From a virus: 64,000 nucleotides of DNA. A model generated the notes under the pieces. It was given only the letters and a program-made list of their open reading frames with translations. It did not search any database and had not been told where the DNA came from. The translations under genes were made by a program, and so were the position numbers. Positions 6,888-51,699 of the stretch are shown here, piece by piece; within the stretch, counting starts at the first letter, position 1, and every line of letters begins with the position of its first letter. The stretch lies in the IMG/VR virus record IMGVR_UViG_3300034175_000017, positions 17,357 through 81,356 of that record; one strand, given 5' to 3'.

Positions 6888-6904
6888 GCGTTGACATCTA
6901 ACGG

Positions 6905-6932
6905 GAAAGGGGGCTAAGGCCCCCTTTCTTGT
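6905..6932 (+). terminator. Intrinsic terminator after capsid gene
   Basis: gaaagggggc-taag-gccccctttc then tt. Confidence 0.75.
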
Positions 6933-11326: not shown

Positions 11327-11350
11327 TCTGTTACCCATTGACTGAACTTG

Positions 11351-11385
11351 AGGGGCGTTGCATTAGTGCAGCGCCCCTTTTGTTT
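11351..11385 (+). terminator. Intrinsic terminator
   Basis: aggggcgttgca-ttag-tgcagcgcccct then tttgttt. Confidence 0.8.
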
Positions 11386-14555: not shown

Positions 14556-17500
14556 ATGGCGAAACCATATGAACAAGATGTCGTTTTAGACGCTGACGGC
14601 AAGCCGCTCTTTTCGGCTATGGATATTTTTCAACGTCGCGTTGATGCTATCCAGAAGACAATCACCAACATTCAGAAGGACAGCTACAAGACCGTAGCTG
14701 ACCTCAACAAGACCCTCGACGCCAACGTCAAGTCATTGCGCGATGCGATGAATGGTCTGCGTGCAGTCAGCACGCCCAAGGCTACCCGAGACCGAGACTA
14801 TACTGCTGCCCTCAAGGCCGAAGCCAATGCGGTCAAGGACACTGATCGTGTTGTTAAGGGTGCCCTTCGGGAGCAGGCCGAGCTTCGCAAGAAGGGCTAT
14901 GACGAAGCCCGCGCCTTTACGCTAAAGGAAGCCAAGGATCGTCAAGCGGCCAGCCGTGAGACTACTCAGCGTATTGCTGCTGACGAGCGTGAGGGTGCCC
15001 GCATCGTTGCAGAAAATAATCGTCGCCGGGTGCAGCAGGAGATTGAAACTCAGAAGCTCATCCGTGCTTCGCGTATCAGCGCAGCGCGTGACGAAGCTGT
15101 TGCAAACGCCAAGAGCATTCAGGATTCCAATGCTCTGACGCGTGCGCGTGTTGACAACATGAACAAGATGCAGATATTTCGTCAGGCGCAGAAGACCGAG
15201 ACGAACCCCGAGCAGCTTCGCGCACTGGCACAGCTTATTGCGATGGAGAAGGCGCGTGGCCAAGCTCTTGAGCAGAACATGCGGACCTTTGAAGCGGCTA
15301 ATCGTCGCATGTCCGGTCTCGACAACAAGACACAGAAGGCCCTTGCGCCTGCTGCCGCGCAGCGTGACGTGCAGATTTACGGTATATCCAACGCACGCAG
15401 CCGTGCTGTTGACGCGCAGACCCTAGCCACGCAGAACTTGCTGAACGCCGCTTCCGAGCGTGAGCGTGTTACTGCCCTGCAAAGTCTCGACCTTGCGCGT
15501 GCCAAGCTCGCTGCCATTGAGCGTATGGTCGCCAAGGAGAACCAACTGGCTGCTGCCGCCGAGCGCGTGAAGAAGGCCGACGAGCGGGCTGCTGCTGGCG
15601 ATGCAAACCTTAGCGGTCGCAGTCAGAAGATGCTGGCCAATCGCTATGCGACGGATGCCATTGCTTCGCTTGGTCCGCAGCAGGCTTTGAATGCTGCCTT
15701 GGGTCGTCAGCTTATTGCACAGAACGCTCTCAAGGGTGCCGTTGGTCAGCAGCAAGTCGCTGCTCAACGCCTGCTTGGTATTGAGGACGCTCGCGTTGCT
15801 GCTATTGAGCGTCAGATTGCCGCAGCCAGCCGTCGTGCGGCTCAAGATGCACGCGAAGCTGCGCGAGGTGCGCCCGGTCCTGAGAAAGAGAACCCGCTTA
15901 AGCGCATCCTGTCACCCGGCTACGCTGTCTCAGCTATCGCACGCACCGGAGTTTACGGAGCGGCTGCTGGTGCGGCTTACGGCGCGTTCAACGCGGCACA
16001 ATCCGGTCTGTCGAACACCATCGAAATCGAAGACGAGATGGTCAAGCTACAGGCCATTGCCAATGCGACCGATACGCAGATGCAAACGCTGCGTGGGTCG
16101 ATCTTCGCTATCGGTGAAACGTCGCGGTTCGCCACGACTGATCTTATCAAGATTTCACAGACCCTCGCACAGGCTGGTGTCGCCGCTGGTGACATGCAGA
16201 AGGTGCTGGCATCTGTCACCACGCTCGCTACCGCATCAGGTTCCACGCCTGAGGAAGCTGTGCAGCTTGTCACGTCGGCCCTTGGATCGTTCCAGTTGTC
16301 GGCCAGCGAGAGCAGCCGCGTTGCTGACCTGATGACTGAAGCTCTGAACCGCACCAAGTTGACGGTGCAGCAGGTTGGTCAGGCCATCCAGTATGTCGGT
16401 GCCACCGCATACGAGCAGAACATCAGCCTTGAGCAGTTGCTTGCCACTGTTGGTTCCGTCGCACAGGCTGGTATCAAGAGCGGTTCCACCATCGGCACCG
16501 GCTTCCGTCAGTTCCTTGTGGACTTGCAGGACCCAAGCAAGAAGCTCACCGAGCAGCTTACGCTTCTCAAGCTAACCTCGGCTGACATTGACGTGAGCGT
16601 GCGTGGCTTGCCTGCTGTGCTCGACACGCTGCGTAACGCTGGCTTCGGTGCCTCACAGGCTTACGCTGGTCTTGAGACCCGCGCTGCTGCGTTCTACCTG
16701 ACCGCGAAGAACAACGTGGACGTGGCTGACCAGTTGCAGTTGTCGTTCTCGTATTCGACGGCTGCGTTGGTAGCTAACGAGCGTGCGATGAACTCGGTCA
16801 CGGCTCAGTGGCAGCGGTTCAAGAACATCGTCGGCCAGCAGTTTACAGAAGATATGCAGGGCGTCGTCAGTCAGATGGAGAATACTCTCCGTTGGATCAG
16901 CGATAAGCTTGTGCAGTCCGAGAAGTTGTTAGACGAGCGTCAGGGTCGTCGTGACAAGGGTCAGGAGAAGTTCTATGAAATGGACATCACTGGCGGCTAC
17001 AGCAACACCGAAGGTTTGGCTGGTGGTCTCAATAGCCTGATCTCTCTCGTCTCTACGAACGATAGTGTTGCTCAGTGGTTCGTTGATATTCAGAAGAGCA
17101 GCGACGGAGCTAGTGCTGCTTCGGAGCGTCTCGGCACGCAGATCAACGAGACCAGCGGTAAGATTGATGAGCACAAGCAGCGGGTTACTGAACTCGACAA
17201 GGAGCTTATTCGTCTCATCACGCAGAAGGATACTCTGCGGAACAACGACACACGCTCTGCTGCGGAGACTGCTACTCTTACGTCGCGCTTCGTTGGTCTT
17301 GCCAATCAGTTGACCGTAACGGGCAATCGTTACGATGATCTTGTGCAGGCTGCTCGTCGGTATCGGCTTGAGCAGTTGCGCCTTATGGGTGTCGAGCTTC
17401 AGGTCCAGCAGCTACAGCTTGGCCAGCAGTCACGTGAGTCCCGCAGCAACTTGCGGACTAATCTTTATCAGATCAACAACAACGCCGAAGTCATGGCGGC

Positions 17501-20889: not shown

Positions 20890-23800
20890 GTGCGTGTGTC
20901 GATTCAGGTTTTCAAAGGTGCAAAGGGTGGACAGAGCAGCGGCTCCGGTAGCAGCTTCGTGCAGACTGCCGACAACCTGCGTTCCGAGGATACGTTTGAA
21001 GGACTGATGGGCGTCTGCATCGGCCCTATCAAGGGACCAACGAAGGGCCTCAAGTCTGTGAAGCTCGACGGCACTGCTGTCCAGAGCGAGAACGGTGAAA
21101 GCAACTTCCCCGGCTTCATCACTATTATGTCGGACGGCAACCCTGCCAACCACCCTGAGAAGCCTATTCTTCGTCTCGGTGCTGGTGCTGCTCCTACGCC
21201 TGTCAATCTTGCTCTGACTAACCCACCCAACGGCACGTCGCAGTGGGTAACGAAGACTGTCAACAACATTGCACCTGACTATATCGACCTGCGTTTCATT
21301 GCCAATCAACTGTTCACGCAGAACAAGCAGGGCGTCTATAACGGCACCGCCAGTATTGAAATTGAAATGAAGCCAACTGGCTCGGCAACATGGGTTAATC
21401 CTATGGCCTATGCTGCTGGTGTTCCTGCTGGAACGCAAATGCAGACTTCGATTGTTGGGTTGGTCGCTCAAGTTTATTTCAACGACTCCTATAATCAGAA
21501 TGCTCAGACCGGCTATGCTGCTCAGCGAGCCTTTCAGATCACCGGCAAGACGGGTAGCCCATCTGTGCATGAGCTTCGCATGTGGGTGCCTTCGACCGGC
21601 GCGTATGCGAACCGCACTTGGGACATTCGCTGCCGTCTCGTTGAGAAAGACAGCGTTGACGCTGATCCGATCTTTGAGAAGCGCAACATCAATTGGGAGT
21701 CGGCTGCTGCCGTCTATCAGGATGAGATTGGCGAAGAGGAAGATTGGCGCGGCGTCTCTTGGCTTCAGATTTACGGCAAGGCATCGAACCAACTTTCGGG
21801 CGTGCCTGACGTTGAGGTCGAGACCGACGCAAAGATCGTCTCTGTGCCGCCGACTTCGATCTTCAACCCTGAGACCCGCGTCTACAACGCTGGCATTTGG
21901 GATGGCTCTTGGGCGAAGGGCTGGACGAACGATCCGGCTTGGGTCATCAATGACATTATCTCTGACGAACTGAGCGGCATTTCCCTGCTCGCACCCGGCT
22001 CGTATCTAAACAAGTGGGATGCGCTGGAAGCGTCCAAGTGGTTCAGTGAGATGGTGCCTGACGGCAAGGGCGGCGTGCATCCTCGCTACAGCCTCAACGT
22101 CGTTGCCAACCAGCAGATGAAGGCCGAAGAGTTTGTTCGCTACATGGCGGGCGCTGTAGGCGGCTTTGCGTGGGACGAAGGTGACGGCCAGTGGAGGATG
22201 AAGGTCGATAAGCCTGACAATCCCGTTGACCTGTTCACGCTTGACAATATCGAAGGTGACTTTGTTTACAGTCACAGCGACGTGGATTCGCGCTTCAACG
22301 ATTACACCGGCACGTTTCTCAATGCCGAGATGGACTATCAGGAAGATACGGTTCATCTCTACGACAATAACAGCATTGCGCTGATTGGGCACAAACCATC
22401 CAGCATTGCACTGGTGGGCTGCACCAATCGTCAAGAAGCGATGCGTCGTCTGATGATCCGTCTGCGCTCGTCTGTGAATGAGACACGGCTTGTCAGCTTC
22501 ACTACGAACCGTCGTGGCCGCAACATCGAACAGCTTTCCACGATCCTCGTAGCGGACGGCCACCTTGGCGATCAGGCCAAGCGCACCACTGGTCGCACGA
22601 TCACTGTGGCTGCTGATCGCATGTCGATCATCGTGCGCGACCCTTTGCGTCTTGAGCTTAACATTCCCTACAAGCTCAAGTTCGCTTATATGAATCCGCT
22701 GTATAATCCTGCGAGCACGACGCAGCCAACGAACTCGGATTGGACGAAGCCGACGATTGTTGCAGAGCGCAATGTCACCAACAACTTCGCACAGCGCGGC
22801 TCGGTCACGACCATCTATCTTGACGCTGCATTGCCTGCTGGTCTGCCAGACAACCTCGCCATTGCGCTTGAGGCTGCAACGCTTGTTACCCTGCCGCTGC
22901 TGTATCGCGTGACGAACGTAGAATACAGCGACGATGGCGAGCGCGTGACGATCAGCGCACTGGAAGTGGACACTGGCAAGTGGGCTGCTTCTGATGGCGT
23001 GAGCAACGTCAACACTGTCTATCAGACTTTGCGGGGCAACGTGCCAACCCCGTTGCTACCGCCTGACAACACGCTGCTGCGCGTCATGGTGACGGAAGCT
23101 GTGCAGGGTCAGAACGTCAGCCTCACCGCCAACTGGCAGCGTCCTTCAGGCGCACAGGTCAGCGGCTTCCGCGTCACCTACTCGGTGAATGGTGGCGTTG
23201 AGCAAGTGCTCACTGAGAAGACCACGCTGACAAGTGCTGACTTAGTGAACCCACCTGATGGCACCTATATCTTCAATGTTTATACGATCAATCGTAGTGG
23301 TGCGCGTTCTGCGCCCCTAGTTGGCACGGCTGTTGTCGATGCCAATACGATTACTGCGGCTCAGGTCTTCTACTCGGGTGGCCAGCAGACGCTTGAAGAC
23401 TTGCGTCCTGCTACGCCGGGTGCCACACGTAACAATCCACGCGGCGCATGGGCCAGCAATACTGACTACTTTGTGGGCGACATCTTCAGCCACCAAGGTG
23501 TGAGCTACATGGTTACTGCGGACCACAGGTCTACTGGAACTGTGCCGACCTTTGAGAAGATCGTTCTCTTTGTGGATCGCGGTGCTCCGGGTCTGAATAC
23601 TGCGACGGTCTATCTGTATCAGCGCAAGGCTACTACGCCTGATCTACCAACAACTGCTGCGACCTACACGTTTTCGTCGGGTGTTCTTACCGGACACAAC
23701 AACGGTTGGGTGCGAACAATCCCCACCACCAATGGTCTGCCGTTGTGGGTTACTGTCGCGTCAGCAAGCAACGACACGAACTCTGACATCATCCAGCCAA

Positions 23801-26352
23801 ACGAGTGGGCTGGTGCCACGATTCTTGCACAGGATGGTCCTCCCGGCACTGGCAGCGAAGGCCCCGCTGGTCTCAACGTGGCGACGGTGTTCTTGTATAG
23901 GCGTTCGCCTGTTACAACTGTGCCGACGAAGCCGACAACGAATCTGACTTTTACGTTCGCTACGGGTCTGCTGTCTGGCGATCTTCAGGGCTGGCAGCAG
24001 ACTGTTCCAACCAACGACGGCAACCTGCTTTACGTCACCACTGTTACCGCCTCGTCAGCAGACCCCACAGACGTTATTCCGGGGGCCGAGTGGGCTGCGC
24101 CTACTGTCATGGCCCAAAACGGTGCTGGTGGCTCACAGGGCTTGAACAACGCCATTGTCTACATCTACCAGCGTGCGACCAATGCTCCTACCTTGCCAAC
24201 GTTAGGCGTGACCTACACGTTCTCGTCGGGTGTTGTGGCCAATCTCAACAACGGTTGGCAGGCTACCATTCCAAACGACAACGGCTTGCCGTTGTGGGTT
24301 GCTGTCGCCACGGCAAGCAACGTCAATACGACAGACACCATTGCTGCGACTGAGTGGACGGCTCCACAGATTTTGGTCGCCAGTGCCAGCGGTAGTCAGG
24401 GGCCATCGGGTATCAGCGTTGCGACTGTGTTCCTCTACAAGCGTGCCGCTTCGATCCCAACCAAGCCAACTTTGAACACGACCCTCACGTTCCAAACCGG
24501 CGTGCTGTCTGGCGATCTTCAGGGCTGGACGCAAGCTGTGCCCACAGTCAACGCGGCTAACGATCCCCTGTATGTGACCACGGCCACTGCTGCTGCTGCT
24601 GCTGCGACGGACACGATCGCTCCTACCGAGTGGGCCACTCCTACGGTCATGGCATCGAATGGTTTGAATGGCTCTGTCATCAAGCTGACGGCTGACCAGC
24701 AGGCGTTCCTTTTCTTGGACAACGTGGCTGTCAATCCTAACCAGCTAATCACGCTGACGGCTACGCCGCAGAATGCCAGCGAGACTATAACGTGGACGGT
24801 CTCGCCCAACGTGACGCTCAATGGAACGGGCAACACTCGCACGCTTTCGCTCGCCAACTTCGGCGGCAACCTGCAAGTGACGGTGACTGCCAAAGGAAAC
24901 CTCACCAACATCACAGATACGTTCACGATCATTCGCACCGACAGGTCTACGGCTGCTGCTGGTGCAGACGTTACCTCGCTCAACACCGCGCTTGGTGACG
25001 GCAATCGCGTGCGCTTCTCCTTAATGGAGGGCGGCACTAACGGTTGGGCACCTTTGCTCGCTGTCGCTAACAATGTTTATTTTGACAAGCAAGTAATAGA
25101 TGGTCGTGCTTTTATCGTAGGCACGACTCGCTTTGGTGCTGCTGGAACTGAAACAGCTAGTATCGGAACTAAGTTAGCGGTAGCACCAATTCCTGTTCGT
25201 CCTTTTGAACGTCTTAGTGTTTCAGCTTACATTGGCATTGATGCACAAGGTCAAAATCGTGCTTGGAACTTTGTGATTTGGTGGGTTGATGCCAACGGTA
25301 ACGGCATAACCAATACTTCAATTGCAAGTGGAACCGGAGGCACTCCTCTACTTTACAAGCCAGCAGCCTTTGTAAACGTGCCTGCCAATGCTTATTATGC
25401 TTGGCTTGAAGTCTATGCTGGTGCAGGCGGTGGCCCTGCTGGCGACATGATTACCTACATCGGTGAACCAATGGTGACGACTGCTGGTTCGTCTCAGACT
25501 GTGCATCCTAACTTCACGCCGGGTCCCGGCAACGAGATGGGTGCTGACGTTACCGCGAACTCGCAGGTGACTTCAGAATACACGGTTACAACTGTAACGC
25601 TCAATGCCAATAGCAGCGGTGTTCTTGACGCGGGTCAGTTTCCTGTCACGTTGGCTCTGCCTAAGGTGCTCAAAGGCGGTCAGTTAGTGACGACCAGCGG
25701 GGATACTACCTACGCTATTTCCGGCCAGACTCCCGCTTTATCCGGTATCTCTGTTGACAACGGCGCTGGCAGTCCATCGAAGGGCCAAGTCACTCTTCCT
25801 AACACTGTGACAGGCAGCGGCAGCTTCACGCTGAACATTTACTACAAGGGCACGCTTGTTTCGGCTCACCCTGTAGCTGTAGCTAAACAGAACGCGGTTT
25901 ATGTGCCGCCACCTGTTACTCCTCCTCCCACAGGTGGAACAGGATCAGGCGCTGCTGTCTATATGCCGACGAACGTAACGGCAGTAGCGGGAACACCGGC
26001 TGTCACTGCGGCTGCTCCTGTCTATGTGGGTTCGGGCAAGACGTTGGTGTGCAACTTGAGTGCTCAATATTCCTGCTTCGGTATCACTAGGTCCACGCGT
26101 CTTGTGGCGAAGTTCCAGTATTCTCCTGCGGGAGCCAATAGCTGGACGGACATTGGGCCATATGCCACCGGAAGTGTTACCTCTACGGATCAAGAAGGAA
26201 ACCTAAATGACTATGGTGAGCTAACTATGGTTCAATCGGTCGCGCCTGCTGCGGGAAACTATGACGTTCGCCTCAATTTCTACAAAGCCTTGACCGCGAA
26301 TGCGCTTCGCCTAGAACCAAACTCCGATGGTTATGCGAATGGTAATGGCTAA
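20890..26352 (+). CDS. Central tail fibre / host-specificity protein (gpJ-like) with FN3, four tandem repeats and a carbohydrate-binding-like module
   Basis: WTNDPAWV, VGCTNRQEAMR, FN3-like WQRPSG..GFRVTY; 1820 aa. Confidence 0.9.
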   Translation: MRVSIQVFKGAKGGQSSGSGSSFVQTADNLRSEDTFEGLMGVCIGPIKGPTKGLKSVKLDGTAVQSENGESNFPGFITIMSDGNPANHPEKPILRLGAGAAPTPVNLALTNPPNGTSQWVTKTVNNIAPDYIDLRFIANQLFTQNKQGVYNGTASIEIEMKPTGSATWVNPMAYAAGVPAGTQMQTSIVGLVAQVYFNDSYNQNAQTGYAAQRAFQITGKTGSPSVHELRMWVPSTGAYANRTWDIRCRLVEKDSVDADPIFEKRNINWESAAAVYQDEIGEEEDWRGVSWLQIYGKASNQLSGVPDVEVETDAKIVSVPPTSIFNPETRVYNAGIWDGSWAKGWTNDPAWVINDIISDELSGISLLAPGSYLNKWDALEASKWFSEMVPDGKGGVHPRYSLNVVANQQMKAEEFVRYMAGAVGGFAWDEGDGQWRMKVDKPDNPVDLFTLDNIEGDFVYSHSDVDSRFNDYTGTFLNAEMDYQEDTVHLYDNNSIALIGHKPSSIALVGCTNRQEAMRRLMIRLRSSVNETRLVSFTTNRRGRNIEQLSTILVADGHLGDQAKRTTGRTITVAADRMSIIVRDPLRLELNIPYKLKFAYMNPLYNPASTTQPTNSDWTKPTIVAERNVTNNFAQRGSVTTIYLDAALPAGLPDNLAIALEAATLVTLPLLYRVTNVEYSDDGERVTISALEVDTGKWAASDGVSNVNTVYQTLRGNVPTPLLPPDNTLLRVMVTEAVQGQNVSLTANWQRPSGAQVSGFRVTYSVNGGVEQVLTEKTTLTSADLVNPPDGTYIFNVYTINRSGARSAPLVGTAVVDANTITAAQVFYSGGQQTLEDLRPATPGATRNNPRGAWASNTDYFVGDIFSHQGVSYMVTADHRSTGTVPTFEKIVLFVDRGAPGLNTATVYLYQRKATTPDLPTTAATYTFSSGVLTGHNNGWVRTIPTTNGLPLWVTVASASNDTNSDIIQPNEWAGATILAQDGPPGTGSEGPAGLNVATVFLYRRSPVTTVPTKPTTNLTFTFATGLLSGDLQGWQQTVPTNDGNLLYVTTVTASSADPTDVIPGAEWAAPTVMAQNGAGGSQGLNNAIVYIYQRATNAPTLPTLGVTYTFSSGVVANLNNGWQATIPNDNGLPLWVAVATASNVNTTDTIAATEWTAPQILVASASGSQGPSGISVATVFLYKRAASIPTKPTLNTTLTFQTGVLSGDLQGWTQAVPTVNAANDPLYVTTATAAAAAATDTIAPTEWATPTVMASNGLNGSVIKLTADQQAFLFLDNVAVNPNQLITLTATPQNASETITWTVSPNVTLNGTGNTRTLSLANFGGNLQVTVTAKGNLTNITDTFTIIRTDRSTAAAGADVTSLNTALGDGNRVRFSLMEGGTNGWAPLLAVANNVYFDKQVIDGRAFIVGTTRFGAAGTETASIGTKLAVAPIPVRPFERLSVSAYIGIDAQGQNRAWNFVIWWVDANGNGITNTSIASGTGGTPLLYKPAAFVNVPANAYYAWLEVYAGAGGGPAGDMITYIGEPMVTTAGSSQTVHPNFTPGPGNEMGADVTANSQVTSEYTVTTVTLNANSSGVLDAGQFPVTLALPKVLKGGQLVTTSGDTTYAISGQTPALSGISVDNGAGSPSKGQVTLPNTVTGSGSFTLNIYYKGTLVSAHPVAVAKQNAVYVPPPVTPPPTGGTGSGAAVYMPTNVTAVAGTPAVTAAAPVYVGSGKTLVCNLSAQYSCFGITRSTRLVAKFQYSPAGANSWTDIGPYATGSVTSTDQEGNLNDYGELTMVQSVAPAAGNYDVRLNFYKALTANALRLEPNSDGYANGNG
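23590..24666 (+). repeat. Four ~90-aa tandem repeats (ABAB) inside the tail fibre
   Basis: Units start at 23590, 23869, 24139, 24409; exact 26-nt repeat at 23969-23994 and 24503-24528. Confidence 0.9.
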
Positions 26353-26353
26353 G

Positions 26354-26656
26354 ATGAAAAAGTGGCTGGTCTTTGACGAAGATGGGAAGATGCATCAGGT
26401 TCTAACGAACCCCGGCGAGGACCCGCCAGAGGGGCACATCGTTCGTGCCACGACGAAGCATACGACTGATCCTGCCTGTGAATGGTTCGACCTTGAGAAG
26501 GGCCGTTGGGTCAAGGACAACGCCAAGCGTGAGAAACTGGATAAAGAAAATCGCCGTAGCGGCGTGACAAGAGGCGAGTTGGTTGATAGGGTGGAAGCTC
26601 TGGAAGCCCAAGTCGCAACCCTGTTGGAGAGGATCAATGCCCAAGGTCAAGCGTAA
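26354..26656 (+). CDS. Tail fibre assembly/chaperone-like protein
   Basis: Follows J; WFDLEKGRWV and C-terminal coiled coil. Confidence 0.55.
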   Translation: MKKWLVFDEDGKMHQVLTNPGEDPPEGHIVRATTKHTTDPACEWFDLEKGRWVKDNAKREKLDKENRRSGVTRGELVDRVEALEAQVATLLERINAQGQA

Positions 26657-26927
26657 CCCTGTCGCAGCCTCGCTGCGTTTGCCTATTAACAGACCCAAGG
26701 TCGTGAAAGACAAGCGGCGTAAGGTATTAAATCTGATACACAAAAAAGAGGGGGCTTTCGCCCCCTCTTCCTTTATCTGCGGAACGACTGTGTATCTCCG
26801 AAGCGTCGGATCATTTCTCCTGACGCTCCCTTGGTCGGTCGGTCGTCAACAAGATTGCCGGTCTCGTTCGCGTCCGCGAGGATGCCGAGGCAGGCCCGCG
26901 CATGACCGACATGATGCACGCCGCTGA
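26637..26927 (+). CDS. Small basic ArfA-like peptide; ORF crosses a terminator
   Basis: RBS GGAGAGG then ATG 26637; MPKVKRNPVAASLRLPINRPKVVKDKRRK; no stop before hairpin at 26746-26769. Confidence 0.55.
   Translation: MPKVKRNPVAASLRLPINRPKVVKDKRRKVLNLIHKKEGAFAPSSFICGTTVYLRSVGSFLLTLPWSVGRQQDCRSRSRPRGCRGRPAHDRHDARR
26742..26774. terminator. Probably bidirectional intrinsic terminator between convergent arms
   Basis: aaaaaa-gagggggc-tttc-gccccctc-ttccttt. Confidence 0.8.
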
Positions 26928-27453
26928 TAGGATCGAAGTCCTCACCATCAAGAAGCTGATAAAGATGCCGAATGGCAGCCGCGATATAAACCCGGTAGAG
27001 AACGGGGTTGTCACGCCAGTTGTATGGGCCATACTTCTTCGCTCCGTCCATCATTGCCTGCGACTCATAGAGTAGCGCGGCACCGGGGATAAGCGACAGG
27101 TCTGGCTTCGTCAATCCGATCAGGTCCTTGGGGTTCACGCCGGTTGTCAGCGGCTCCGTCGAGTTGTCAGCTTCACCAGCATAGGTGAAATCACCAATCA
27201 CGTTGGGACCAACGCCGTTGTCAATCGCAAGAGTGACATCGTGCGAGTATGCCTCAATCTCTTCGGCAGGGATCGGCTCTGGCATGTGCGAGATACCGAC
27301 AGCCTGCAAGGCGGCGAGAGGATCGAACGGCTGCTCGTCGCTGATGACTTCCGTCAGTTCCAAATCGGGCAACTGAACAGGAGCCTTACCGGCTGCTTCC
27401 AGATCGTCGGCCTCGGCTTCGCTGCCGAGGTGCATGTATTGGGAATCGCTCAT
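26773..27453 (-). CDS. dATP/dGTP diphosphohydrolase-domain (DUF5664) protein with acidic N-terminal extension
   Basis: [37 protein letters not shown]; start ATGA-coupled to thyA stop. Confidence 0.8.
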
Positions 27454-28451
27454 ACTGAAACTTCCGCTTTGATTGAGGGGAGGGGGCTGTAGTTGAAGAG
27501 TTGAATATCTTCCGAGTTCAGGTCGAAGATGTCCTTGTCGCCAACAACCTTGAGTGACGGAAAGGGTGTTGGGTTTCGTGACAACTGTTCCTTCGCCTGC
27601 TCGACGTGGTTGGCATACAGGTGAAGATCGCCAAAGGTGTGGATGAACTCGCCCACACCCAAGCCAACTTCGCGGGCAATCAAGTGCGTCAACAGCGCGT
27701 AGGATGCGAGGTTGAAGGGCACGCCAAGAAAGATGTCGGCGGATCGTTGATACAACTGACATGAGAGCTTTCCATCCTTGACGTAGAACTGGAACAGGGC
27801 GTGGCAGGGACGCAAGCGCATGCTGTCAATGTCAGCCACGTTCCATGCGCTGACGATATGGCCGCGATCATTTGGCTTCTCGATCAAGCTCTTGATGACG
27901 TTGGAGATTTGGTCGATCACAAGAGGCTTCTGGATAGACCAATCCATACCCATGAACTCGGTCTCTCCGCGCTCTACGGTCGTTCGATTGGTTTCCCAAG
28001 CCCGCCACTGTTTACCATACACAGGGCCAAGCTCGCAGTTCTCGTCGCACCACTCGTCCCAAATGTGAACGCCCTTCTCTTGCAGAGGCAAGGCGCTGGT
28101 GCTGCCTGACAGCATCCACAACAGTTCCTCTACGACGCCACGAAAGAACACCTTCTTCGTGGTCAGCAGAGGAAACTCGTCCTCAATGTCGAACCGCATC
28201 TGCCGTCCGAACGTCGAGAAGGTGCCAGTGCCTGTGCGATCTTCGCGTGGCGTAGGGTCTTCCTCATGCAGATCGACTAGCTCTTGGAGCAGGCCGAGAT
28301 ACTGTAGCTCGCCGTGGTAGGGGCGATTGCCGTTGCGTAGCTGCGAAGCGTCCACCTGAATGACAGACGACCCGGCAACAGGCTGGAACACGCCGCCGTT
28401 GGGGTCAACGATGGCCGGTCCACCCGACATGATTAGAGGATGCTTTTTCAT
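27450..28451 (-). CDS. thyA: Thymidylate synthase
   Basis: [45 protein letters not shown]. Confidence 0.97.
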
Positions 28452-40417: not shown

Positions 40418-40450
40418 AAAAAAAGGGGAGGGAGTTGCCCCCCTCCCCTT
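40418..40450 (-). terminator. Intrinsic terminator
   Basis: GC hairpin followed by T7 on the minus strand. Confidence 0.8.
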
Positions 40451-40472
40451 CAAGGACGTAAGGGATTGAACC

Positions 40473-41239: not shown

Positions 41240-41389
41240 TTACCCGCCGACCATCAGATTGCACTGACAAGGGCCTTCTTCGCACACCTTGCACGACACT
41301 GGCTTGCTCAAACAGGTGCCGATGGTGCTGGCCTTGAAGCCACGCGTGCCGGTGCCTCGACAGTGAGGACAGTTCTTATCGCCTTTCAC
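41240..41389 (-). CDS. Small Cys-rich zinc-finger protein
   Basis: CPHCRGTG, CKVC, CQC. Confidence 0.55.
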   Translation of the reverse strand: MKGDKNCPHCRGTGTRGFKASTIGTCLSKPVSCKVCEEGPCQCNLMVGG

Positions 41390-41900
41390 GGAGAATCCTT
41401 TCTTCTGTAAGCAGTTGGTTCCAAACGTGACCACGCAAGGGTGCGTAACCATCACCCATCACAGCCAGTTGCAGCCGCTTCTCTGGCAGATACACAGCAG
41501 CGAACTTGGGATCATCCGTCGCTAGGTTCGTGATGTTATCCAGAATATCAGCATACTTGATGTTCTGTGCCTGCGGCGTGATGATGGCCAGCTTATCTCG
41601 CTGATACTTGGCACGCTGTGTGCGGTTCAAAGCAGGCTGCTTGGCATTGGTGACTTGCAACACCAGCGTAGATACCTGTGGTCCGAACCGACGCTGAATA
41701 TCGAAGATGTCGTAGGGCGTATCTTCAACCACGTCATGCAGCGCACCGGCTACGAGCGTCGTCAGGTCCACACCACGAACCATCGTGGCAAGTGTATGCA
41801 CCACAGCGCGTGGATGCACGCTGTAGGGCTTGCCAGACAGCTTTCGTATCTGTCCAGCGTGTGCCTGCTCCATGAATTGAATTGCATCGCGTAGGATCAT
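41376..41900 (-). CDS. Small alarmone hydrolase (Mesh1/SpoT-type HD domain)
   Basis: AHAGQIRK..G.PYSVHP, LHDVVEDT, KYADILDN. Confidence 0.88.
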   Translation of the reverse strand: MILRDAIQFMEQAHAGQIRKLSGKPYSVHPRAVVHTLATMVRGVDLTTLVAGALHDVVEDTPYDIFDIQRRFGPQVSTLVLQVTNAKQPALNRTQRAKYQRDKLAIITPQAQNIKYADILDNITNLATDDPKFAAVYLPEKRLQLAVMGDGYAPLRGHVWNQLLTEERILRERR

Positions 41901-42497: not shown

Positions 42498-42527
42498 AAA
42501 AAGATAGGGGCCACTCGGCCCCTATCT
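42498..42527 (-). terminator. Intrinsic terminator
   Basis: agataggggcc/ggcccctatct stem plus T-tract on the minus strand. Confidence 0.75.
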
Positions 42528-43623: not shown

Positions 43624-44255
43624 TATTTTGTTTCCTTTCGTGATTGATTTTCGGCCCACTTGCCCTGCTCGTCGTAGTCGAAGGTGCGCTTGAACAGCGT
43701 CTTCGACGGACCATGATACATGACGATGCCCTCAGGGTTCATGAAGCCGGGGACCAGCTTGGACCCGGCGAGGCTAAGGTCGATCAGAGCGTTGTCGAAC
43801 ACGCCAGCGTGTGACAGGTAGCCCTCGAACAGGACAGGCACCACGTCCACGCGGTCAGGCAGTTCAACGCCACGCCAGCGAGGATTGAAGAGGGCAAAAC
43901 GCTTCTCGGTCAGACCGTAGTTGCGCTGGATGCCTGCACCATACCACTCACCGAAGTGACGACCGGCACCGAGTGTCTCGACAAAGCCTCGCGCATTGTC
44001 AGCAACGAAACGAGCGAAGCCAGCATGATCGCCGGTCTTGCTGGTATCGAGCAGACGATTGCGGCTTCCGGCGAACACCGAATAGACCACATTTTCGTGC
44101 ATAAGCACTGCTACAGCAGGCCCATACTTGATGTTAGGGGACATCGTGTCTTCAGGGACGATGTTGATCTGTGCGTTGCTGCCGTCGATCTTCTCGCTGA
44201 TCGTCCAATCGTGGCTGAAGCGGGTTAGCTTGGGGAATGGTTCAAAGGCGCTCAT
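43623..44255 (-). CDS. RNA ligase (Rnl2-like adenylyltransferase domain only)
   Basis: EKIDGSN motif I, GSRNR, GEWYG, FALFN, PEGIV. Confidence 0.8.
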   Translation of the reverse strand: MSAFEPFPKLTRFSHDWTISEKIDGSNAQINIVPEDTMSPNIKYGPAVAVLMHENVVYSVFAGSRNRLLDTSKTGDHAGFARFVADNARGFVETLGAGRHFGEWYGAGIQRNYGLTEKRFALFNPRWRGVELPDRVDVVPVLFEGYLSHAGVFDNALIDLSLAGSKLVPGFMNPEGIVMYHGPSKTLFKRTFDYDEQGKWAENQSRKETK

Positions 44256-44434: not shown

Positions 44435-44472
44435 AAACAAAGAGGCCCACCTACATGGGGTAGGTGGGCCTC
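44435..44472 (-). terminator. Intrinsic terminator after the GH5 gene
   Basis: gaggcccacctac stem plus tttgttt on the minus strand. Confidence 0.8.
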
Positions 44473-51644: not shown

Positions 51645-51674
51645 AAAAAGAGGGGGACCACTTGGCCCCCCTCT
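51645..51674 (-). terminator. Intrinsic terminator
   Basis: gaggggg.cca stem plus T-tract on the minus strand. Confidence 0.7.
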
Positions 51675-51699
51675 CGTATCAATTAACCGCCGCCACTCA

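Follow-up and report, generated by a model that had tools for sequence, protein, structure and literature searches.

A small basic reading frame that runs through a hairpin

The window analysed here is a stretch of 64,000 nucleotides (nt) from the IMG/VR virus record IMGVR_UViG_3300034175_000017 (positions 17,357 to 81,356), an 81-kb record estimated to be 97% complete. The structural genes of this phage, encoding a terminase, a capsid protein, a tape measure protein and a GpJ-like tip protein, form a block on the + strand (292-26352), and the last + strand open reading frame (ORF) after them is a small gene starting at 26637, which is the subject of this work. The features that define this gene are the following.

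26626..26632, + strand: Shine-Dalgarno-like GGAGAGG, 4 nt ahead of the ATG
26637..26927, + strand: whole open frame, ATG at 26637, 96 codons, then TGA at 26925-26927
26637..26774, + strand: effective coding part of 46 codons, starting with the ATG and ending with the T-rich tail
26655..26716, + strand: conserved core N-P-V-A-(11 residues)-V-V-x-D-K-R, recognised by pattern match, alignments and hhalign
26746..26769, both strands: GC-rich hairpin AAGAGGGGGC-TTTC-GCCCCCTCTT, 10-bp stem, 7 GC, loop TTTC

A preliminary description of the locus had noted the GGAGAGG ribosome-binding site, the ATG at 26637 and a very basic peptide, as well as the lack of a stop codon ahead of the hairpin and its U-rich tract. 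All of this was confirmed from the sequence: the frame stays open for 96 codons, the first stop ends at 26927, and the extension into a convergent gene on the − strand, previously put at about 150 nt, was measured as 152 nt. Codons 47-96 run antisense to that convergent gene and match no family. The 46-codon part is the expected product provided that transcripts end at the predicted terminator, and by our own count from the translation it contains 13 Lys/Arg and one His versus two Asp/Glu residues.

The hairpin corresponds to codons 37-45 of the small frame, or to codons 37-47 when the T-rich tail is included, and has a local fold z of −4.96 with a free energy change (dG) of −16.9 on the + strand and −21.6 on the − strand. 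It is followed by the tail CCTTTATCTG on the + strand and by TTTTTTGTG on the − strand, where it directly follows the stop codon of the convergent gene (TAA, 26773-26775 on the − strand) and where the T-run is perfect. The element is predicted to be a bidirectional intrinsic terminator common to the small gene and the convergent gene. The imperfection of the U-tract on the + strand, raised as a caveat in the preliminary description, is real; it is typical of this phage, the tails of the two other compact + strand terminators (TATCTGTT and TTGTTTGG) being just as imperfect. Of the eight compact perfect-hairpin terminators that our own scan identified in the window, seven are intergenic and only that at 26746-26769 lies within an open frame. 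At the DNA level, a design of the BrfA type, i.e. a rho-independent terminator inside a reading frame, is present in the form of this hairpin with its T-rich tail and the 96-codon frame.

The terminators of the phage are all alike, being compact GC hairpins with perfect stems and loops of 4-8 nt; they are located at 6902-6931, 11350-11379 and 26746-26769 on the + strand and at 51648-51675, 44442-44472, 42503-42526 and 40422-40451 on the − strand. Those on the + strand have a ...T-A-T-C-T-G-like tail in common.

Contigs from three further soil/biocrust sequencing runs, covering 26428-26896, 26300-26789 and 26300-26767, respectively, were identical to the window with no other letters and no gaps, and the missing stop is therefore not an assembly error. 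As the three runs may stem from one sampling campaign and show no variation, they are uninformative on selection. No RNA run was among the sequencing runs in which the stretch occurs. The other two frames are also free of stop codons between an A-run (26742-26747) and the hairpin, so that an error in the length of this A-run could not create a stop ahead of the hairpin.

The peptide belongs to the conserved family DUF7230

When compared to the Pfam model of the uncharacterised family DUF7230 (PF23876, cut-off 27 bits), the 38-residue translation scored 26.9 bits (E 5.3e-6; residues 4-40 aligned to positions 2-37 of the 42 in the profile) and the 96-residue translation 26.3 bits, while a whole-genome search gave 27.5 bits “with its neighbours in the frame”, which is over the cut-off. 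By this model the peptide is a borderline member. It is also, as expected for the family, a basic protein in the range of 40-70 residues with the core near its N-terminus; the relatives have in common the core N-P-V-A-(11 residues)-V-V-x-D-K-R, the size and the charge. In an alignment of 22 sequences N7, V9 and A10 were invariant, and P8, V22, V23 and D25 nearly so.

A three-sequence profile that included the window peptide retrieved 216 proteins at E ≤ 0.01; among the 120 of them that were listed, the majority already carried a PF23876 annotation. Within the aligned part, many PF23876 proteins share 40-58% of their residues with the window peptide. For the core, a degenerate DNA motif of 62 nt was matched exactly at 13 loci in viral contigs, all 13 being true small genes with a start codon just upstream and ORFs of 47-54 codons (one of 112). 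The same motif occurred in 88 stretches of metagenome contigs, 80 of which were retrieved as loci. The 70 distinct pattern-retrieved peptides, the window's included, were sorted by eye into 55 true and 15 false ones, true peptides being those with a nearby upstream start codon, a basic N-terminal region and the core of the family; with two true peptides that ran off their contigs left out, 52 scored relatives were obtained. The small frame is a genuine gene of a conserved family.

Nine marine metagenome loci (L154, L156, L158, L164, L171, L173, L175, L188 and L209) were counted as false, as they share a recurrent, unrelated frame without a start codon. This frame reads Y-K/R-N-P-V-A-C-S...V-V-G-D-K-R-K-I-L and is probably another frame or the other strand of a conserved marine gene.

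The Pfam DUF7230 model matched two of 401 Pseudomonadota genomes scanned. Close relatives of the window peptide were found neither by a word search over proteins of 25-81 amino acids nor by phmmer over 1.84 billion representatives (no match at E ≤ 0.001), and there was no relative among the PDB sequences and no match in NCBIfam. A tblastn search against phages and plasmids also gave no match, possibly owing to the low-complexity filter. The peptide P0001 had no match in genome contigs, a narrow DNA motif had none in metagenome contigs, and of 288 pattern matches to the alignment A2 in viral contigs none was confirmed by tblastn. Matches in PHROGs were weak (phrog_20887, E 0.011; phrog_6310, E 0.064).

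Within the family, a betaproteobacterial clade (P0004-P0122; Sulfuritortus, Thiobacillus, Gallionellaceae and others) has a near-invariant N-terminal half, K-R-x-S-G-P-P-R-R-P-R-N-P-V-A-K-A-V-R-T-P-x-F, joined to a variable and strongly acidic tail, an architecture unlike that of ArfA.

DUF7230 and ArfA align at the profile level

The preliminary description had proposed a gapless alignment of the peptide with the core of Escherichia coli ArfA. The core given there agreed with the E. coli sequence, and the alignment held, with 8 of 22 residues identical (N, A, L, P, R, V, K, K). The same register was found independently by hhalign when the 22 DUF7230 sequences were compared to 13 ArfA sequences (probability 74.7%, E 2.6e-5, 28 columns), residues 2-29 of the window peptide corresponding to ArfA residues 9-36. 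As a claim of ArfA likeness by profile, the earlier suggestion thus stands for the comparison of the two families and fails for the Pfam ArfA model, which found no match.

Our own profile-profile run, with 35 versus 30 sequences, gave P 5e-5. The trimmed score of 25.9 was not reached by any of 200 column shuffles (mean 7.6, standard deviation 2.0, maximum 15.0), and the reversed profile scored 9.3. Without trimming, a single outlier among 100 shuffles reached 129. By profile comparison and shuffles, the N-terminal core of ArfA (N14...P23-x-F-R-x-R-V29) can hence be aligned beyond composition. The DUF7230 core aligns with ArfA from N14 to about K36, and its best-conserved segment, R/K-x-R/K-V-V, falls on Q27-E30, the strand that recruits release factor 2 (RF2) according to the accessible part of a review (PMC8012679). 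The same text assigns the KH motif to the channel-binding tail of ArfA, and states that a small residue at A18 matters, a bulkier one abolishing RF2 activation. In place of the KH motif the window peptide has I34-H35-K36-K37, with H35 on the histidine of the K-H of Roseobacter phage CRP-212 in the BLASTP alignment described below.

Intermediates between the two families were found in cultured phages. With g10 of Citromicrobium phage RXM as the query, tblastn identified an ArfA-like ORF in each of five more cultured phages of Alphaproteobacteria (Roseobacter phage CRP-212, Brevundimonas phages Kikimora and Bajun, Caulobacter phage Cr30 and Erythrobacter phage XM05). All six proteins pass the ArfA cut-off with 27.3-37.3 bits (CRP-212 33.3, RXM g10 29.6), and sub-threshold matches to DUF7230 were obtained as well for three of the five new ones. 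The CRP-212 ORF joins an N-terminal half of the DUF7230 type (K-N-P-V-A-K-I-L-R-T-P-R-Y-R) to K-K-G-K-G-S-Y and K-H; BLASTP aligned it to the window peptide with E 3e-4 (15 of 37 residues identical), starting near both N-termini and with a three-residue gap exactly at G-S-Y. RXM g10 aligned to the window peptide with E 8e-4.

These comparisons lead us to conclude that DUF7230 and ArfA are probably sister families, with the window gene on the DUF7230 side; the relationship looks real despite the missing match to the Pfam ArfA model. The distribution of the two families adds nothing to this: both Pseudomonadota genomes with DUF7230 lack ArfA, and since 364 of the 401 genomes lack it anyway, the complementary pattern is uninformative.

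The ArfA-like ORF of CRP-212 (L230:398-520) is contained, on the same strand, within the 3' part of gp38 as annotated, and that of Cr30 (L232:356-499) lies between two annotated genes, neither being annotated as ArfA, and the genes of Bajun and XM05 are annotated as hypothetical.

Some ORFs of both families have a normal stop codon and a C-terminal ...AA (LMAA, SKAA, RQAA, LLAA, QAA), namely 6 of 30 ArfA ORFs (L129, L130, L135, L137, L138 and L140) and, in one bacterial order, 3 of 8 DUF7230 ORFs (L104, L107 and L108). The ssrA degradation tag has a C-terminal Ala-Ala, which these endings resemble, and it is possible that genes with such an ending encode their own degron in lieu of the non-stop design.

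The stop-less layout among relatives

A terminator ahead of the stop codon was found in two other clades besides the window gene. In the order of genome G180, where the family is present in 8 of 151 genomes, two of the eight members (L089 and L105) have a terminator at the same codons (K-H-K-G-R...R-P), their frames running on for 32 and 265 codons past it, respectively. In a high-GC clade, three of the 52 scorable relatives (L152, L160 and L192) have a strong terminator within the frame (dG −21.6 to −28.5, tail TTTTCTTTT); conservation of their DNA reaches the T-tract and ends there, and their stop codons are located at differing places. An AT-rich internal hairpin in L195 (dG −8.1) was not counted. 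In RXM g10 an 11-bp hairpin without a T-tract lies 21 codons ahead of the stop. The betaproteobacterial DUF7230 proteins have acidic tails and ordinary stops.

Genomic setting

The small gene lies between the structural block and a set of genes on the opposite strand, with the following neighbours.

20890..26352, + strand: GpJ-like tail tip protein, last large gene of the structural block
26327..26656, + strand: 109-codon ORF upstream of the small gene, no family match, overlapping the start of the small gene by 20 nt
26773..27453, − strand: convergent gene, PF18909 (dATP/dGTP diphosphohydrolase N-terminal domain), 86 bits

The convergent gene had been labelled DUF5664 in the preliminary description, and its start is uncertain, as the ORF stays open up to 27762. 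Next to it lies a gene with DNA similarity to phage genes annotated as thymidylate synthase (window 26773-28451, − strand), and the two look like a nucleotide-pool module. In a DNA similarity search against GenBank phages, thymidylate synthase was the only match. The same phage encodes a protein with an HD_4 (RelA/SpoT-type hydrolase) domain and one with an RNA-ligase domain (41379-41900 and 43626-44255, − strand), the latter scoring 28.4 bits versus a cut-off of 27. Their presence would fit a theme of translation protection and proves nothing. No tRNA, transfer-messenger RNA (tmRNA) or Rfam family was found in the window or in the whole record.

When neighbouring proteins were used as queries for related phages, the 109-residue product of the upstream ORF gave one marginal locus, the convergent gene three loci and the GpJ-like protein no match; none of the four records thus retrieved contained DUF7230.

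Proposed function and alternative explanations

We tentatively interpret the small gene, with somewhat less than even confidence, as an ArfA-superfamily gene of the DUF7230 branch whose strongly basic product of about 46 residues would be made from a non-stop mRNA and would act in tmRNA-gated ribosome rescue. The rescue activity and the tmRNA gating we infer by analogy. The preliminary description had proposed an ArfA-like factor with the same tmRNA-sensing logic; what remains of this is a conserved family, kinship with ArfA at the profile level and the layout of arfA and brfA, whereas a match to the Pfam ArfA model and the KGKGSY motif are absent.

In the proposed mechanism, + strand transcripts would end around 26772-26778 at the terminator and would thus be non-stop mRNAs, on whose 3' ends ribosomes would stall with the peptide of about 46 residues still on the tRNA. 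As long as host trans-translation (tmRNA-SmpB) has spare capacity, the peptide would be tagged and degraded; once this capacity is exhausted, e.g. late in infection or when host nucleases cut mRNAs, untagged peptide would accumulate. By analogy with ArfA, the basic tail K21-K37 might then probe the empty mRNA channel of stalled ribosomes, and the conserved N-P-V-A...R-x-K-V-V segment might recruit a class-I release factor, the release freeing ribosomes for the synthesis of phage proteins.

A number of observations weigh against this interpretation. The Pfam ArfA model (PF03889, cut-off 25.5 bits) gave no match at E ≤ 10 for the 38- or the 96-residue translation, nor in the whole record, while its positive controls passed (E. 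coli ArfA at 89.7 bits and the six phage proteins), and BLASTP against E. coli ArfA found nothing. The K-G-K-G-S-Y motif, of which K34, G35, K36, G37 and S38 were invariant in 13 diverse ArfA sequences, is absent, as the preliminary description had cautioned, the corresponding stretch of the window peptide being V-V-K-D-K-R-R-K-V. Where ArfA has A18, most DUF7230 members have Lys and the window peptide has Ala. The DUF7230 model matched arfA weakly in the E. coli genome (E 0.95, the sole match at E ≤ 1) and in none of five other ArfA-bearing genomes; this cross-check thus largely failed and was given little weight. The expectation that homologues would also lack a stop ahead of a terminator was not borne out for most of them: a terminator-like hairpin before the stop was present in none of 11 distinct viral relatives, 49 of the 52 scorable pattern-retrieved relatives had no internal terminator, the exceptions being L152, L160 and L192, and all five cultured-phage ArfA-like genes examined end with an ordinary stop right after the basic tail. 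Furthermore, L152, L160 and L192 score below the Pfam DUF7230 cut-off (17.2 bits for L192, no match for L160), and their placement in the family therefore relies on the core motif and the alignment A3. No close relative of the phage was found that could show whether its own lineage keeps the layout. Finally, the convergent gene needs the hairpin as a terminator anyway, and the T-tract on the + strand is imperfect.

Several of these points would be explained if the gene were a real DUF7230/ArfA-like gene that lacks its stop by accident, the 3' end having been lost or replaced at the junction of the late and convergent blocks. The product would then be constantly tagged and destroyed, as that of a dying gene, or be a 96-residue read-through protein with a meaningless tail, and no tmRNA-sensing would have been selected. 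With its perfect T-run on the − strand, the convergent gene alone accounts for the hairpin, ordinary stops prevail among the relatives, the searches yielded no member of this phage lineage in which conservation of the layout could be seen, and by our own estimate a stop-free stretch of 18 codons is not improbable by chance. We nevertheless regard such an accident as unlikely: the 46 codons up to the terminator are close to the usual family length of 47-54, and the start, the ribosome-binding site and the core are intact. The sequence is the same in four runs, perhaps of one population, although a single substitution would suffice to regain a stop. The layout moreover arose or persisted in at least two other clades of the family as well as in ArfA and BrfA, which argues for selection in the superfamily.

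It is also quite unlikely, in our judgement, that the gene encodes a real protein, maybe from a non-stop mRNA, that is no rescue factor, such as an mRNA-channel binder blocking host trans-translation or translation, or a basic nucleic-acid-binding protein made together with the virion genes. The lack of the KGKGS motif that is invariant in ArfA would fit such a role, as would the Lys at the A18 position in most DUF7230 members, where, according to the accessible review text (PMC8012679), a bulkier residue abolishes RF2 activation, the long acidic tails of the betaproteobacterial members, which are unlike ArfA, and the location at the end of the structural block. On the other hand, the best-conserved segment aligns with the RF2-recruiting strand Q27-E30 of ArfA, as delineated in that text, intermediates combine an N-terminal half of the DUF7230 type with KGKGSY and pass the ArfA model, and other phage copies sit among early or metabolic genes and not among virion genes. 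The remaining explanation, that the frame is open by chance and resembles basic peptides fortuitously, is highly improbable. In its favour, the frame is short, shares 20 nt with the upstream ORF and falls just below the Pfam cut-off (26.9 versus 27 bits), and single-sequence searches gave no close homologue; the preliminary description had itself warned that short basic peptides can align by chance. This worry is countered by the E-value of 5.3e-6 for DUF7230 and the 40-58% identity to many PF23876 proteins, and a chance frame would account neither for the degenerate motif common to 13 of 13 true small genes in viral contigs nor for the BLASTP match near both N-termini to a phage ArfA-like protein (E 3e-4) and the ribosome-binding site.

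A wider reading, possible but doubtful, is that DUF7230 is a large, unrecognised branch of the ArfA superfamily in phages and bacteria that has lost KGKGSY, and that the phage member is a working recruiter of release factors. It would then be a self-gating, virus-encoded rescue factor, expressed as the last gene of the late transcript, and its level would follow the spare tmRNA capacity of the host, as its message would end at a terminator ahead of any stop codon. Back-up ribosome rescue by ArfA, BrfA and ArfT is thought to be narrowly distributed and chromosomal. If DUF7230 does work like ArfA, the known range of the mechanism would come to include many phages as well as bacteria that lack ArfA, stalled ribosomes would be managed by phages themselves, and the non-stop trick would have been reused repeatedly. 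The phage factor would then preserve a supply of usable ribosomes at times when broken mRNAs abound, whether through host defences or late in infection. The window peptide is small enough for synthesis.

Comparison with known systems

According to the accessible part of the review PMC8012679, a hairpin with premature termination or RNase III cleavage gives rise to the non-stop mRNA of arfA, whereas in brfA a rho-independent terminator before the stop does so, the level of the product being kept low by trans-translation. The same text considers it probable that there are more small recruiters of release factors, which are difficult to find. ArfA has been annotated in phages in print, where its function was not assayed, for Citromicrobium phage RXM g10 (PMC8953757) and in PMC12753301, as far as the accessible text of these papers goes; gp30 of pelagiphage HTVC027P is an annotated phage ArfA reported to be highly expressed (PMC8953757/PMC12753301). 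In full-text literature, supplementary files lying outside the search, no paper names DUF7230, and the papers on ArfA, phages and rescue contain phage ArfA annotations only, with no description of a stop-less phage rescue gene. The accessible part of a survey of release-factor evolution does not mention phages. The stop-less phage design is thus, within this literature, without a published description, whereas phage ArfA genes as such are already annotated in print (PMC8953757, PMC12753301).

In comparison with ArfA (YhdL, PF03889), known from E. coli and other beta- and gammaproteobacteria, the window peptide is likewise small and basic with a basic tail after the core, and the core N-x-x-x-A/K-x-L...P-x-F/N-R-x-R/K-V aligns with it without gaps. 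The frame passes a hairpin before the stop in both genes, for which reason the arfA mRNA is non-stop. The window peptide differs in having neither a Pfam ArfA match nor KGKGSY and in carrying IHKK instead of the KH motif, and the window gene differs in being phage-borne and in that its mRNA would be truncated by a bidirectional intrinsic terminator, which would also serve a convergent gene, instead of an RNase III hairpin. The six ArfA-like genes of cultured phages share with it the phage location, a size of 36-60 residues and motifs of the N-terminal half (K-N-P-V-A-K-x-L-R-T-P-R-Y-R in CRP-212, R-P-R-V-V in Kikimora), and in RXM g10 the frame likewise contains a hairpin. In contrast to the window peptide, all six score above the ArfA cut-off and have retained K-G-K/R-G-S/A-Y/F.

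The members of DUF7230 resemble the window peptide in the match to the hidden Markov model, the core, the size and the charge, and most of them differ in having a stop codon and a variable tail of 15-28 residues (acidic in betaproteobacteria), the window gene having neither before the terminator. BrfA (YqkK) from Bacillus subtilis, described as evolutionarily independent of ArfA in the accessible review text (PMC8012679), is a chromosomally encoded protein of about 62 residues. It is likened to the window gene by design and not by sequence, the regulatory design being the same in both: a terminator placed ahead of the stop codon.

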